64,000 nucleotides of DNA from Eledone cirrhosa (Eukaryota), in NCBI GenBank assembly GCA_964016885.1, contig OZ024748.1, positions 11,346,001 to 11,410,000 on the forward strand. Reading direction: 5' to 3'. Under the pieces are notes generated by a model. It was not told where the DNA came from. It saw only the letters and a program-made list of their open reading frames with translations, and made no database searches. The stretch's first letter is position 1, and the number at the start of each line of letters is the position of its first letter. Below are positions 8,000 through 36,170 of this stretch, piece by piece. Both the position numbers and the translations under genes were made by a program.

Positions 8000-8122
8000 T
8001 TGGTTTTATGGTGATATTGATCGAGTTACTGCTGAAGATAAACTGAAGAGAATTCCACGTGACGGTGCTTTTTTGGTGAGGAAAAGTGAGACAGACCAGT
8101 TTGCTTTTGTGATATCCTTTAG
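8000..8122 (+). CDS. PLCG1: PLC-gamma exon: cSH2 N-terminal half
   Basis: CAG/GTAAAA, phase 2-2; WFYGDIDRVTAEDKLKRIPRDGAFLVRKSETDQFAFVISF (PRDGAFLVRK motif). Confidence 0.95.
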
Positions 8123-9154: not shown

Positions 9155-9332
9155 GTGTGAAGGTAAAATAAAACACTGCCGCATTAAACAAGAGGGTCGC
9201 CTCTTCACCATTGGTACCGCACAATTTGAGAGTTTGCTCAACCTGATTAAATATCATGAGAAAAACCCACTCTACAAGAAAATGAAGCTTAAGTACCCAG
9301 TCACGGACCAGTTAATTTTGAGAATGGGTATT
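9155..9332 (+). CDS. PLCG1: PLC-gamma exon: cSH2 C-terminal half
   Basis: CAG/GTAAGT, phase 2-0; CEGKIKHCRIKQEGRLFTIGTAQFESLLNLIKYHEKNPLYKKMKLKYPVTDQLILRMGI. Confidence 0.95.
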
Positions 9333-12700: not shown

Positions 12701-12943
12701 TATTGGTTGATTTAATTTTGTTCAGCTTATAATGCAGCCACGCTAACCAGTTTGTTGTTGATCTGTTACACTTAGCTGGCATGTTTGTGGTCCTTGTTGC
12801 TTCATTGTAGTTTTCCCTACCCCCACCCTAAAAAAAAAAAAGCAGCAACAACAACAACAACAACACACACCTTACCTTGCCAGATTAAAAATCCCAATGC
12901 TTAGTATGATAAATGTGATTCCGAGTTGATTCTTCCTTTGTAG

Positions 12944-13006
12944 GCACCCAATGCTGGTTCAATACATCAAGATCTTTATGTTATTCCCAATCATTTAACT
13001 TCAAAG
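12944..13006 (+). CDS. PLCG1: PLC-gamma cSH2-SH3 linker exon, variant A (63 nt)
   Basis: Pyrimidine tract + TAG, AAG/GTAACC donor, phase 0-0; APNAGSIHQDLYVIPNHLTSK, Tyr motif like the Y783 region of PLCG1; paralogous to 15542-15604. Confidence 0.8.
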
Positions 13007-13289
13007 GTAACCCTAAGTATTTGCAGAATGTTGCCAGTAGTATATCTTATCATTTTGTCATCTAAGTCTTGTCTGTGTATATGTGTGCCTATGTGTCTGT
13101 GTGTCTATGTGTTTATATGTCTTGTGTCTGTGTGTCTCCTTTTGGTATGCTTGTCACCCTTTATTCGGGTTAGCATGTTCCTTCTTCACCATATAGAATG
13201 TATTATGTTTATTATTATCATTTATTTGCACTATACATACATATTTAATGTGATAGACATAGCAATGATTGAGTGAGTGTATATATGTG

Positions 13290-13325
<36 letters not shown>

Positions 13326-13386
13326 CACACTTAGGTCTTGGATTTTTAGCTCCAGCAATCATAGCCACATGTCATATATATCTTTT

Positions 13387-13427
<41 letters not shown>

Positions 13428-15541
13428 GCTTGTTTTATGGACATGTGTAGTTAAATACACTAAACCTGCACTGATTGAAGAACTCAATACAGATTTTGTA
13501 GTCAAAATAATATTTATGATTAATAATAACTAGTTACTGATACTGATTTTTTTAAAACTACATATTATCATCACCATTTCACATCTGTTCTGTTTCTCTA
13601 TGTTGGCATGGGTTGACTGGGTCACCACATACCAACTCAGCGCTTCATTACTGACTTTTCAGAGTGATCTGGTACCTCATCCTTGCTTACAATCATCCCA
13701 GCACTTTGTAACTTTGCAGAATGTGCTGAGTGCATTTATCATGGTACCTACGCTAGGGACATTTTTGTGCTCTTACCACACTGTAAGGTGGTGTGTTGGT
13801 AACGACAAACACCACACAGTCCACACTGTAAAGTGGTAGTGCTAGTGAACTGACAACAAAAACTACATCTACTAAATATATAATTGTATACATCTACAAC
13901 AGCCCGACCTATATTCATATGTATACAGTCACATATGTGTATACATATTGTGTACACCAACCAATAACACACAAACCTATATATCTATAAATATAGTCAG
14001 TCACCCCATACACACATGTATACATACACTCACACAGAGTTTACATTTAGTTAAGTTTTTTTTATATTTGATTTTCATAGAATTTCTACATTAATTTTCA
14101 TAATTACATTATGGAAAAATATTTTTTAGTTTTTTAGAAAAACAGAAAAAAAAGCTGTTATATATACTTTTCATTTATTAAAAAGGGAATATAACAGTTT
14201 TTCTGTGTTTTTTAAACGACTAAACCTATTACTTAAGTGCCAACACAGTCACTGTTCAAGTGATTTGCCAAACATGTACAACTCTGAGTTGTAAGAAACT
14301 CTCAAGAGAGCTGGGCAGCAGAAGGTCTTCTGAGATGGAACCCTACCCTCAAGCAAGTGTTTCAGCCTGTAAATTCTTTCACTCTAAGGGGGCCAGGCTA
14401 CTTCCAGGTCATGACTCCTGGGTGTCCTTCTCATGACATTTAGTCATTCGGATATTGGAGACTTGTGTATTTAAACCATATGGAGATTTTGTTGACAACA
14501 TCTAGCTGGAACTCATTTTTGTTGTTTCCGCTTTCAAACTTCTATTTAATCACTTTCTTGAGTTAGGAAAAATAACATTGGTAGTCATGGCAGCAGTGAG
14601 GCATCAACAGTGTCACCGCTGCCACCAATAAGAAAAAAAGATTCCATCTGAGAAGAAATATATTTGAGGGCGGTGGATTGGCAGTTGAATCAGTTGAGCG
14701 TCGGACACCATGCTTCACGGCATAGAGTTTCTGCCCTTTATGTTCTGATTTTAAATCCTGCCAAGGTTAGTTTTGCCTTTCATCCTTGCTGGATTGATAA
14801 AATAAAGTACCAGTAATACACTGGGGTCGATTTAATTGACTTTCTCCTCCGTTAAAAATTTTTGGCTTTGTGCCTAAATCAGAAATCATATTTGTAGGGT
14901 TTCTTTTCCCCCTTTCACTCGGTTATCATGGTTTCATTTTGTTCACTTTGTGTTTAGTTCATATTTAGCCATGACAGCAAAATGGAGGGTCAATAGAGCG
15001 TTGGATTAAATGCTTTGCAGTATTTTCTCCTGCTCTCTCTGCATTCTGAGTTCAAATCCCACCTAAGCCATCCTTTTTGGCTCAATAAATAAAGTACCAG
15101 TCTAGGGTCATGAATTGGCAGAATGTTAGATCATCAGGCAGGGTTTCTTTATGGCATGTGTTCCAGCCCCTGTGCATTCTATGTAACTGTAGAGTTTATC
15201 TCGGACAAGAAACTCTCCCCTATGGATAACTTCCATTTCTGGAAGTTATCCATTGGCCTCGGAGCAAGAATCTTGTGGAAAAGAATGGCTAGTTGGTTTT
15301 CGTTGACGCCCAGAGTTTCCCCAAGAATGTCATCGTTTTTACCCATCACTAACCCCCTATAGAACACCAAGGTTGAGTTTCCACCTATCGTAGTGCCCAA
15401 TCAGTGGAAACTCCACCTTGGTGTTCTAATAGTGACAATAATAATAATAATAATAATAGTAATAATAATAGTTGTAGTATAAACTAGTGTAATGTGTCTG
15501 ATTCTTAACTTGCGTCCGTTTTACCACATGTGGCTTTATAG

Positions 15542-15604
15542 GAACCTGATGATGGCAACATCCATGGAGATGAGATCTATTATATGCCCAAGTACACTTC
15601 CAAG
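15542..15604 (+). CDS. PLCG1: PLC-gamma cSH2-SH3 linker exon, variant B (63 nt)
   Basis: TAG acceptor, AAG/GTAATG donor, phase 0-0; EPDDGNIHGDEIYYMPKYTSK, begins EPD like the vertebrate linker. Confidence 0.8.
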
Positions 15605-19178: not shown

Positions 19179-19210
<32 letters not shown>

Positions 19211-19319
19211 TGTATATTATATGTATATATATATATATGTGTATATGTATGTATGTATTTGAATATATATGTATATACGTGTATATGTAGACATATATAT
19301 ATATATATATATACACATA

Positions 19320-19845
19320 TGTATATATTCACATGTATATATATATGTATATATTCACATGTATATGTATATATATATGTATATATTCACATATATATGT
19401 ATATATGTGTATATATTCACATGTATATGTATATATATGTATATATTCACATGTATATGTATATATATATGTATATATTCACATGTATATGTATATATAT
19501 ATGTATATATTCACATGTATATGTATATATATATGTATATATTCACATGTATATGTATATATATATGTATATATTCACATATATATGTATATATATATGT
19601 ATATATTCACATGTATATATGTATATATATATGTATATATTCACATGTATATATGTATATATATATGTATATATTCACATGTATATGTATATATATATGT
19701 ATATATTCACATGTATATGTATATATATATGTATATATTCACATGTATTTGTATATATATATGTATATATTTATATGTATATATATATGTATATATTCAC
19801 ATGTATATATGTATATATATATGTATATATTCACATGTATATATG
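19320..19845. repeat. ~28-30 bp minisatellite ATGTATATATTCACATGTATATGTATATAT
   Basis: Many tandem units with recurring TTCAC core. Confidence 0.9.
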
Positions 19846-20819
19846 TATATAATATATATATGCCTTTATGGTAAATAAAGAAATCTATATATGTATAATA
19901 TATATATATAATTTATATATATTATATTATATACATCTCTCTCTTTATCTTTTTATCTATATCTCTATCTATCTCTCTGTATATATATATATACACATAT
20001 ATAAACTGCATGAACACTGTTGCTATTTGGCATGCATATATGATGTACACTTACTTGCTATGCTCTGTGTGTTAGCTTCACAATAATAACTACACTATAT
20101 ATTTGATCTGCACTAAGTTACTACATAAAATGCTATCAACTACTATTATACACTTTGACTTCATCTTTCACCTCTTATATTCAACATTTACTGTTTTTAA
20201 CCAGTTTTTTTATGTTTTTTTTTTACATTTTTTTTTTATTTTCCAATGCATGGTTTCACATGTTTTTCATTTTATGTTTCCTGTTATTTTTTTTTTAATC
20301 GTGTTTCTCTTTCTTTTCTTTATTTTTTTTTGAAAAACAAAAAAAAACACAAAAAAAACAGTTATATTTGAAAATTATGATGTATAGAATGTGATATAAT
20401 ACATATTTAGATATTTATATTGCAGTTTAATTCTCTCTCTGTATGTATTATGTATGTATGTATATATATATGTATATATATATATAATGTGTGTGTAATA
20501 TGTTATATACATAGGTATTTGTATATCACACACACATATATATAATGTGTGTGTGTGTAATATATTGTATACATATGTATTTATAAATCACACACACGTA
20601 TATATATATATATACACACACAAAGGTGTGTGTGTGTGTATATATATATATATACTCTACATTTTTAAAGTATTGAGTAATCTATTAAGACAGTTTATAA
20701 TATTTTGCATACAATTTGTTATATTTATATATATTGTTTTCTTTTCTTTTATTTTGTTTTATTGTTGTTATTTATCTATAATAGTTATATTGTTGTAATT
20801 ACATGGTGGTGTGTGTATA

Positions 20820-22452: not shown

Positions 22453-22556
22453 GTAAAAGTAAAAGCTACCCAAGACTATCAAGCGAAGCGGCCTGATGAG
22501 TTATCGTTCCGAAAAGGTTCCATTGTCAATAATGTCCATAAACAAGAAGGTGGATG
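22453..22556 (+). CDS. PLCG1: PLC-gamma exon: SH3 N-terminal part
   Basis: TAG/GTTAGT, phase 0-2; [34 protein letters not shown](W). Confidence 0.95.
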
Positions 22557-26661: not shown

Positions 26662-27857
26662 ATATCCTTTTCTGTCTTCTATATAGCCTATATAATTTAT
26701 AATGCATTATATTTGTATAGTATATATAGTATATAATATGTTATATATAACCTATGTAATATATAGTGGGGTATCTACAGCCTATATAATCTATGTGCTA
26801 TCTACAGTCTGTGTTATATATAGCCTATATAATATATAGTGTTATATATAACCTATAAAATATATTGTGCTATATATATAGCCTATATAGTATATAGTGT
26901 GTTATATATATAGCCTATATAATGTATAGTATGTTATATATATAGCCTATATAATGTATAGTATGTTATATATATAGCCTATATAATGTATAGTATGTTA
27001 TATATATAGCCTATATAATGTATAGTATGTTATATATAGCCTATATAATGTATAGTATGTTATATATATAGCCTATATAATGTATAGTATGTTATATATA
27101 TAGCCTATATAATGTATAGTATGTTATACATATAGCCTATATAATGTATAGTATGTTATATATAGCCTATATAATGTATAGTATGTTATATATAGCCTAT
27201 ATAATGTATAGTATGTTATATATAGCCAGTTTTAGGGTTGATTCTTCCTCTAAATCTTGTTCTCACTTCCTCTTTATTACTCTCTCTTTCCTTCTCTGTA
27301 TGTATTCAGCTGTGTTCAGACCTCGACTGATGATGGGCTCTGATAGGTTTTAAATGCCCAACACATGCTGTATGTCACTGCAGTGCCGCCTATGACTCCA
27401 CCAGGAGTTACAGGTTCATACATACAGTCAGAAGAATAATGGTAGGGCCTGTAACCAGAACATCTGAGACTGGTGGGAGAAAGGGATGAAGTTATTCTCA
27501 CCTCAAACACCTGGCCTAGATATATATCCTGTCATCCAGTACTGGGCTCCAAGACTATGGGTCCGCTGTGAGAAGGACAGGTGCAGCCCACTGGCCTCTC
27601 CTTCCTCATAACAGAGCCATCCAGTTCCACACTGTAAATGTGGTTGGTGTTAGGAAGGGCATCCAGCTGTAAAATACCTGGCCAAATTTGCAGTCCTCAT
27701 TTGAGCAAGGTATGGCGTGGCCAACTCTGGACATACTTGCCTCCCGGGCTGGACGACCCATCTAACCCATGCAAGCACGGAAAAATGGATACTAAATAGT
27801 GATGATGATGATGATGATGATGATTCTTTGTTGTATTTTCCTTAACTCCTTTCCCAC
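26662..27857 (+). other. U12-type (minor spliceosome) AT-AC intron, 1196 bp
   Basis: 5' ATATCCTTT, branch site TTCCTTAAC at 27838-27846, terminal AC at 27856-27857; splicing restores LFAK-YNRNQLSRIYP in frame. Confidence 0.92.
26880..27226. repeat. 30-32 bp minisatellite TATATAGCCTATATAATGTATAGTATGTTATA inside the U12 intron
   Basis: About 11 near-identical units, preceded by degenerate units from ~26680. Confidence 0.9.
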
Positions 27858-34459: not shown

Positions 34460-34718
34460 CCAAACTAATGAGGTCGTGTAGGTGTCACGACAAAAAAAAA
34501 CACACAGTCCACGCTGTAATGTGGCCGTGTAGGTAACACGGTAAAAAGTTCCCAGTCCACACTGTAAACGTGGTTGGTGTTAGGAAGGGCATCCAGCCGT
34601 AGAAAACCTGCCAGATACCGAGCGAGACATGGTCACCTGACCAATCTTGTCTCAAGTGGGACAATTCCCGTCCAAACCCATGCTAGCGAGGAAGATAGAC
34701 GTTAAACGATGATGATGA
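34460..34718 (+). mobile_element. Non-autonomous repeat sharing the RTE 3' tail
   Basis: GGTTGGTGTTAGGAAGGGCATCCAGC...CCCATGCTAGC..GGAA..GACGTTAAAC(GAT)n; copies at 25510-25677, 27620-27825, 28650-29055, 29160-29365 (-), 31460-31650 (-), 43510-43670. Confidence 0.7.
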
Positions 34719-34787
34719 TATATATATACCTACATACATATATACATACGTACACACCCACACATATATATATATATACATGCACAT

Positions 34788-36170
34788 TCGAAAAATGCGA
34801 CACCACCGTTAGAGAAGAAATAAACAAAAGAAGCAACAGCAATGTACGGGAAAAACTCTTTGACCTATGGAAGCGAGATACAATCAGAGAGGAATTAAAA
34901 TCAAAGAAAATCTTGGAGTCAAGAAGACAATGGCTACAAGAATATGAAAAAAACTATGGGAAAGACCAAATAAAATCCAAAAATCAAGCCCATAAGAAAC
35001 CCTCAAATTCAGGAATATGCAAAACCACAAGAAATGAAGAATACTCATGCAATAAACAAACTTCAACCAGAGATTGGAGAATCCCAAACCCACAATTATA
35101 CACAGACCAAATACTAAACACCAGAACCAAATACCACTACTGTCAAAACCCCCAAGAACAATTACCAGCGGCAAAATCAAAGATGTATGAAGACCGAACA
35201 GAACAGCAAAGAACCAGATCTCCATATATCAACCACCAAACAATATTCTATTGTTCAGAAAATTATCAACATGAAATGCCAGCAAACAGAATATTTCACC
35301 ACAACAGAAACACCGCTACCTCAAATGGGAATTATTTTTTAGAACAAATGAAAGAAAAAAAGAAAAAAAAACACCACCCTTCAAGTGGCACTCGACGAGA
35401 AAGCCCCAAAGGAACCAAAAATAATCAACATATCGGCCAAAAAACTAACACAACAGGAAATCAAACTGCTAGAAAATGGACTGAAATTCACACCCACTCC
35501 GAAAGCAGATCAAGCCGACTTTATAAAAGACACAGAAGATTGTTGTAAAAAATTACGTCTTGGAGAATTCTTCCAGGGTGTAGGTTACAAGGAGGAATCA
35601 CTAGTGAAAAACAGAAAGAACTTCAAACTCCCATTAAATAGAGACAAACACCTGGAGAAATACATAACCTACCTCTGACGATCGGCGCAGTCAAATATTG
35701 CAGAGACGAAACACAAATGCAACATTCCTACAGACTAGCACTAAACAAAATTTACGTCTGATAATGAAACAATGCAAGTTAAAAGATGCGGGGACCCTCG
35801 AAGTGGAACTTCTGAACACATTGAAGAGGGTGGGAAAAATCTTTAAAAACAACCAGATTTTCAAAGTTAATGCAAACATGAATTGCAAAACCAAAAACTT
35901 AATTTACTGTGCAACCTTCCCACAATGTAAAGAATACTACATTGGTGAAACCGGAACAGGTCTACATGACAGAGTTTGAGTACATAAACAACAAATTAGA
36001 GACCCCTCTATCAGAAAACCACATGCAGTGAACACTTCGCAATATGCGGAAAGGGAAAATTCACAATTTCCCCTTCTTTAAGAAATGGTTGGACGACGAA
36101 CATTTCCGAAAATATAAAGAATTCTTCATTAGAAAGTACAAACCACTACTGAACACTAAAAAATGATATC
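34788..36170 (+). mobile_element. Degraded, internally deleted Penelope-like retroelement (N-terminal region + GIY-YIG endonuclease, RT core missing)
   Basis: IINISAKKLTQQEIKLLENGLKFTPTPK (PLE pre-RT motif) jumps near 35677 to NCKTKNLIYCATFPQCKEYYIGETGTGLHDRV*VHKQQI (GIY-YIG); frameshifts and stops. Confidence 0.8.

Follow-up and report, generated by a model that had tools for sequence, protein, structure and literature searches.

The linker tyrosine between the cSH2 and SH3 domains is the textbook on-switch of PLC-gamma. In the window analysed here (the whole stretch of 64,000 nucleotides of Eledone cirrhosa DNA), two exons, called A and B below, stand between the exons for cSH2 and SH3 in a PLC-gamma gene. 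This raises the question of what the pair is, whether an mRNA carries one copy, the other or both, and what the choice would mean for the enzyme. An earlier note on this DNA proposed that tandem duplication had produced mutually exclusive exons. The features needed for the argument are as follows.

328–38359, + strand: PLC-gamma gene, 3' part, with 18 coding exons that cover nSH2 through to the stop codon; the start of the last exon is approximate, and the 5' part precedes the window.
8000–8122, + strand: exon for the first part of cSH2, with the alphaA and betaB arginines retained.
9155–9332, + strand: exon for the second part of cSH2, with the phase-0 donor before the cassette pair.
12944–13006, + strand: candidate cassette exon A, an activation linker of the probable ancestral type; Tyr-aliphatic-Asn-Pro in other molluscs, here diverged to YVIP.
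12977–12979, + strand: Tyr codon in exon A, by anchored alignment the predicted counterpart of mammalian PLCG1 Tyr783.
13007–15541, + strand: intron from A to B, 2535 nt, GT-AG, with an AG-free zone of 52 nt before B.
15542–15604, + strand: candidate cassette exon B, a mollusc-type linker, probably derived.
15578–15580, + strand: first Tyr codon of exon B (Y-x-x-P), by alignment the predicted Tyr783 counterpart.
22453–22556, + strand: first SH3 exon, with the phase-0 acceptor after the cassette pair.
26662–27857, + strand: Y-box intron of the PLC-gamma gene, AT-AC (U12-type), outside the cassette pair.

The gene is identified by its sequence as an octopod PLC-gamma. Its 18 exons differ from O. 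sinensis PLC-gamma, between nSH2 and the stop codon, at 49 of 742 aligned residues, about two background residues having been misplaced in the exon mapping by imposing GT-AG borders on the AT-AC intron. The cSH2 exon shares 95% identity with those of O. sinensis and O. bimaculoides. The window covers the protein from nSH2 to the stop, with the N-terminal half outside, and the domain set was checked through the O. sinensis orthologue, in which Pfam finds the PH, EF, split X/Y boxes, nSH2-cSH2-SH3 insert and C2 of a PLC-gamma. The cSH2 encoded in the window retains the alphaA and betaB5 arginines, the KHCR strand and the PLY motif. The mammalian betaB7 arginine is a serine in E. cirrhosa, which counts against our main reading.

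Three further observations concern the rest of the window. The AT-AC intron has the donor ATATCCTT, a branch-like TCCTTAAC at 27839 and an AC acceptor, and its removal by splicing gives back the orthologous protein. Three O. vulgaris models stop at this point, at 970–991 residues, and are probably mis-annotated as short because of it. The last PLC-gamma intron contains a non-repetitive open stretch of 280 codons (34706–35548), possibly a retroelement remnant, and the region from 38400 to 64000 consists mainly of microsatellites and low-complexity tracts and holds neither a PLC-gamma exon nor any obvious long coding ORF.

Exons A and B are a real, old homologous pair. The coordinates, frames and peptides reported earlier were all confirmed: each exon is 63 nt long, open and of phase 0-0, with AG/GT borders and with upstream and downstream neighbours also in phase 0. 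The borders read tttgtag and AAG/gtaacc for A, and ctttatag and AAG/gtaatg for B, and the splice sites of both are alike and of middle strength. The ungapped identity was recomputed with the same result, 8 of 21 residues, and 31 of 63 nucleotides are shared. The protein identity and global score were reached by none of 20,000 residue shuffles, and the nucleotide identity by 6 of 20,000 codon shuffles. The two exons are thus adjacent, homologous and of the same phase, and the proposed tandem duplication stands. No third linker copy stands out among the 318 open AG..GT candidates of 30–120 nt between 9333 and 22452; 15 of these are 63 nt long, and the best unrelated one scores 27, against 112–121 for A and B themselves. 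In the 3.0-Gb genome the DNA of exon A has one match, as has the cSH2 exon, and there is no second PLC-gamma cSH2 exon elsewhere.

The equal length of the two exons had been taken as meaningful, and we considered it as a sign of an exclusive pair. This was rejected. A proper alignment of A with B needs two compensating one-residue gaps, so the common 63 nt do not reflect an ungapped copy, and in other molluscs the copies vary from 17 to 32 residues; the equality is a coincidence of the cephalopods.

The pair is older and more widespread in molluscs than was first supposed. A- and B-type copies occur, in constant order, in chiton, gastropod, bivalve and cephalopod proteins, with no case of B before A among the 143 mollusc proteins listed. 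Among 156 proteins from outside the molluscs or without assignment, with 93 distinct linkers, no doubled linker was found; outgroup sampling in this set is thin: Lingula, Owenia, Paralvinella and Chaetopterus are represented by one record each and Lineus by two. Since the units are only about 20 residues long, nearest-neighbour tests were used in place of a tree. The first typing of A and B rested on positions +1 and +2 after the tyrosine, and the types were re-tested with labels taken from tandem position alone, in 18 double linkers. Residue pY+1 is Ile or Val in all 18 first units and His or Tyr in all 18 second units, while Asn at +2 occurs in 16 of 18 first units and none of the second. 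The nearest neighbour from another class has the same tandem position for 36 of 36 units, for 34 when +1 is masked and for 31 when +1 and +2 are both masked. When the typing was trained without cephalopods, cephalopod B was typed as B on its upstream residues alone (8.6 versus −2.9); for cephalopod A, it is the residues after the tyrosine alone that give type A, the upstream residues allowing no discrimination.

The presence of both types in chiton makes one duplication before the living mollusc classes split the simplest reading, and it is likely that A and B arose in this way in the mollusc stem; the living classes separated over 500 million years ago. The single linkers of brachiopods and annelids resemble A, so B is likely to be the derived copy.

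How the pair is spliced was examined through relatives. The mollusc sample comprises 143 listed proteins in 37 taxon groups by source name, some of which pool species; the Mytilus cluster is represented by 15 of its 85 members and the P0199 cluster by 15 of 21, and the gastropod-like P0028, P0030 and P0169 (all A only) and the partial P0094 (A) and P0147 (B) stand outside the tally. No shorter partial proteins with the linker were found by protein search. Both copies are present in 20 of the 37 groups, and 11 of these 20 have A-only as well as B-only forms, among them all three Octopus species and the cuttlefish-like cluster (which holds a named Sepia pharaonis protein). Each copy is conserved and used as the sole copy in relatives, as had been expected.

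Strict mutual exclusion, on the other hand, is not supported. In relatives, the rule that each mRNA carries exactly one copy is contradicted by A+B forms in 16 of the 20 taxa with both copies, and by annotated forms with neither exon in 3 of 37 (O. sinensis X6, O. bimaculoides X3 and one Haliotis model). In O. sinensis the isoforms are A+B (X1–X3), B (X4), A (X5) and neither (X6); in O. vulgaris A, B and A+B; and in O. bimaculoides three B, one A and one neither. The cuttlefish-like cluster has seven B, one A and two A+B proteins. Its intron-free contigs, of about 2–6 kb with full-length ORFs and presumably transcripts, number 24 with B, 3 with A and 3 with A+B, tallies that do not measure expression level. 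Direct transcript support for A+B thus comes from 3 contigs, which represent 2 proteins; several other A+B records are genome-based predictions, which may join exclusive exons. RefSeq isoform junctions are commonly backed by RNA-seq.

Some side observations belong here. The copy listed alone varies by lineage, with A in many gastropods and B in many bivalves and in the cephalopod transcripts, hinting at a shift of the default exon. A third copy, C, is present in Mercenaria, Ruditapes and Mya (P0119, P0121, P0270, P0272); its +1 residue is Phe or Ile and its +2 residue Gln, and it is used alone, after A, or after A+B. Optional basic segments between linker and SH3 occur in Aplysia, Biomphalaria and Bulinus and, apparently independently, in Polypterus and Lepisosteus (P0247, P0159, P0250, P0203, P0221). 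Linker-less models outside molluscs, from the bee Habropoda and a sea cucumber (P0198, P0336), may be annotation skips.

No mechanism that would enforce exclusion was found in the window, be it frameshift and NMD, steric hindrance or U2/U12 incompatibility. With 63 nt and phase 0-0 for each exon, A, B and A+B are all in frame. The AG-free zone before B covers just 52 nt of the 2535-nt intron, which leaves no steric bar to A–B splicing, and the three introns around A and B are all GT-AG with U2-like donors. A search for inverted pairs, with the TA array at 19200–19860 masked, gave 22 perfect pairs of at least 11 nt, against 1–19 in 20 shuffles; in this search of the window sequence alone, none of the 22 overlaps an exon or splice site.

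On the basis of these observations, we consider it probable that A and B are spliced in E. cirrhosa as they appear to be in other cephalopods, namely as optional cassettes, mostly with B, but also with A, both or neither, and that this would change the ease with which the enzyme is switched on. The use of exon A in E. cirrhosa is read across from the relatives. A different account would keep an effectively exclusive switch, in which the A-only and B-only forms are the regulated ones, the others, A+B and exon-less, being put down to slight leakage or to errors of annotation. It draws on the 27 of 30 cuttlefish-like contigs that carry one copy, and on the 4 of 20 two-copy taxa in which single-copy forms occur without A+B and which fit exclusion (O. 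bimaculoides, one Haliotis, one scallop, and the chiton Liolophura, with A in six models and B in two, never together). Minor both-exon transcripts are also described in accepted human cases such as TPM1 (PMC8373072). However, A+B is the most frequent form listed in Mercenaria (6/10), Mya (9/13), Mytilus (11 of 17 listed), Mizuhopecten (5/6), Biomphalaria (6/10) and O. sinensis (3/6), and A+B contigs equal A-only contigs in number. Given also the lack in the window of frameshift, steric or U12 barriers and of any inverted pair touching either exon, an effectively exclusive switch seems rather unlikely.

What optional cassettes would do to the enzyme can be approached from the mammalian protein. 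There, kinases phosphorylate Tyr783, and cSH2, once bound by the phosphotyrosine, is lifted off the catalytic core; this binding is proposed to displace cSH2 from the C2 domain (PMC7004563). The same source reports that soluble kinases require Tyr775 too and that the linker loop is dispensable for autoinhibition, a loop-less construct remaining autoinhibited, and it describes the cooperation of extra linker phosphosites as an open question. The earlier note had placed the activating tyrosine in this linker, which agrees with our alignment: each exon carries one Y-x-x-P, whose tyrosine is the Tyr783 equivalent in an alignment that includes rat PLC-gamma1 and 84 further linkers.

The contrast drawn earlier between one tyrosine in A and three in B has less meaning than it seems. 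We considered the three tyrosines of B as the Y771/775/783 set, and rejected this: the extra ones lie at +1 and +5, there are no equivalents of Y771 or Y775, and an upstream Tyr775-like residue is absent from octopod A and B, being kept in cuttlefish-like B and most gastropod copies. Other molluscs have His at +1 of B, and mostly Phe, Tyr or Leu one place beyond +5.

The fixed differences between the copies lie at +1, which is Ile or Val in A and His or Tyr in B, and at +2. These coincide exactly with the specificity positions of two SH2 domains: PLCG1 cSH2 gains large binding energy from pY+1 only, and the Grb2 SH2 requires Asn at +2 (PMC7337045), its motif being pY-V/E-N (PMC3514216). The cSH2 groove is also termed permissive (PMC7337045), which counts against tuning by A and B. 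In 84 non-mollusc linkers the +1 residue is Met in 58, Val in 7, His in 6 and others in 13. His at +1 is also present in corals with a single linker, so B need not be a weaker trigger.

We hypothesise that A and B would both be working triggers, differing in cSH2 affinity or kinase preference, mainly through pY+1, and perhaps in adaptor docking too. The A+B form would then present two triggers in one enzyme, and the exon-less form would be kinase-insensitive and still autoinhibited. A switch in kinase input or threshold through exon choice, as the earlier note had it, is plausible. A bolder proposal is that, since their common ancestor, molluscs splice tissue-specifically among A (hydrophobic, Grb2-motif), B (His/Tyr, other kinases), a double form and a trigger-less decoy, as a code for kinase access to calcium signalling that is absent from the other animals sampled. 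This is offered tentatively, as possible rather than expected.

It might instead be that both linkers activate equally, the duplicate being harmless or mildly useful and the exon choice not regulated. Tyr-x-x-Pro is indeed retained in A and B, the +1 residue is variable outside molluscs, and the sole copy listed is A in six gastropod genera and B in Solemya, Dreissena, Potamilus, Pecten and Tegillarca. Pure redundancy should, however, lose or blur one copy, and the two signatures have stayed separate through four classes, with a third distinct copy gained in venerid and myid bivalves. Equal, interchangeable linkers are accordingly improbable.

It is worth adding that exon A has changed in E. 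cirrhosa. The exon B peptide is identical at 21 of 21 residues to those of O. sinensis, O. vulgaris and O. bimaculoides. Where O. sinensis and the cuttlefish-like protein agree, exon A departs from them at 3 of 13 sites and the rest of the mapped sequence at 14 of 533 (p = 0.006 by a one-sided Fisher test); over all sites the figures are 5 of 21 and 44 of 721 (p = 0.009). Exon B has no changes. The test is post hoc, on one of 18 exons, and corrects to about 0.1. The sequence YVIP resembles the PDGFR pY1021 YIIP, a ligand of cSH2 (PMC7337045, PMC3514216). The likeness noted earlier is real, but YVIP as a conserved or meaningful motif had to be given up: it occurs only in E. cirrhosa, while 5 of 5 other cephalopod A entries read YVNP, and the Asn at +2 that is lost here is found in 24 of 27 distinct mollusc A units. 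Exon A still has its frame, its Tyr and Pro+3 and its two splice sites. A search for RNA runs of E. cirrhosa with a 6.6-kb, largely intronic stretch, which is ill suited to that purpose, listed none, and from three runs of unknown kind in one study no read was placed on 12750–13070. The changes may reflect relaxed constraint, re-specialisation or assembly error, and exon A may be drifting or taking on a new specialisation, with B as the main working copy. That only B functions in E. cirrhosa and exon A is decaying would account for the excess of changes beside an unchanged B, but is very improbable given the corrected test, the preserved frame, Tyr, Pro+3 and splice sites, a new YVIP that matches the PDGFR ligand, and assembly error as another source of the changes.

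Exons duplicated in tandem and spliced alternatively form a known class (PMC8373072). PLCG1 and PLCG2 are absent from the main text and one supplement file of that human tandem-exon catalogue, and no description of a PLC-gamma linker exon duplication was found in the literature searched, a scope that leaves most subscription journals and bioRxiv supplements outside; the earlier remark that the pair is undescribed holds to that extent. The isoforms are already present as unlabelled automatic database models, for which no interpreting paper turned up in that literature. In molluscs, one enzyme would come in natural versions with a single, a double, an alternative or no trigger, distinct in four classes at the residue reported to be dominant for cSH2 binding. 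Such a series is suited to tests of threshold and kinase choice, with Aplysia, Biomphalaria, mussels and octopus as models.

The comparison with known systems is instructive. Mammalian PLCG1 and PLCG2 have the linker in the same place between cSH2 and SH3, with an aligned tyrosine (Tyr783/Tyr759) and, likewise, a cSH2 with the alphaA and betaB5 arginines, KHCR strand and PLY motif. In contrast, vertebrate records have one linker unit where the mollusc linker is doubled and optional, and the Tyr775-like residue (Tyr775/Tyr753) is missing from the octopod copies. Substitutions by tandem duplication such as Drosophila Dscam1 and SLC12A1 (PMC8373072) are alike in adjacency, homology, phase, age, alternative splicing and the placing of the exon at a functional site. 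The PLC-gamma pair differs in that it is not strictly exclusive, all four combinations being in frame, and in that the exon is predicted to hold a phospho-switch located in a loop, not a piece of a folded domain. In oyster alternative oxidase (PMC5589949), molluscan isoforms also come from a duplicated, alternatively spliced exon, although in an unrelated enzyme without phospho-regulation. The closest parallel to the exon-less form is an engineered one. PLC-gamma1 delta-25 (residues 766–790 replaced; PDB 6PBC, PMC7004563) lacks the same loop, the deletion being visible in the 6PBC alignment as a gap across the linker, and is reported to be autoinhibited in cells (PMC7004563). It carries a three-residue spacer, whereas the natural form, as annotated, would fuse cSH2 straight to SH3.
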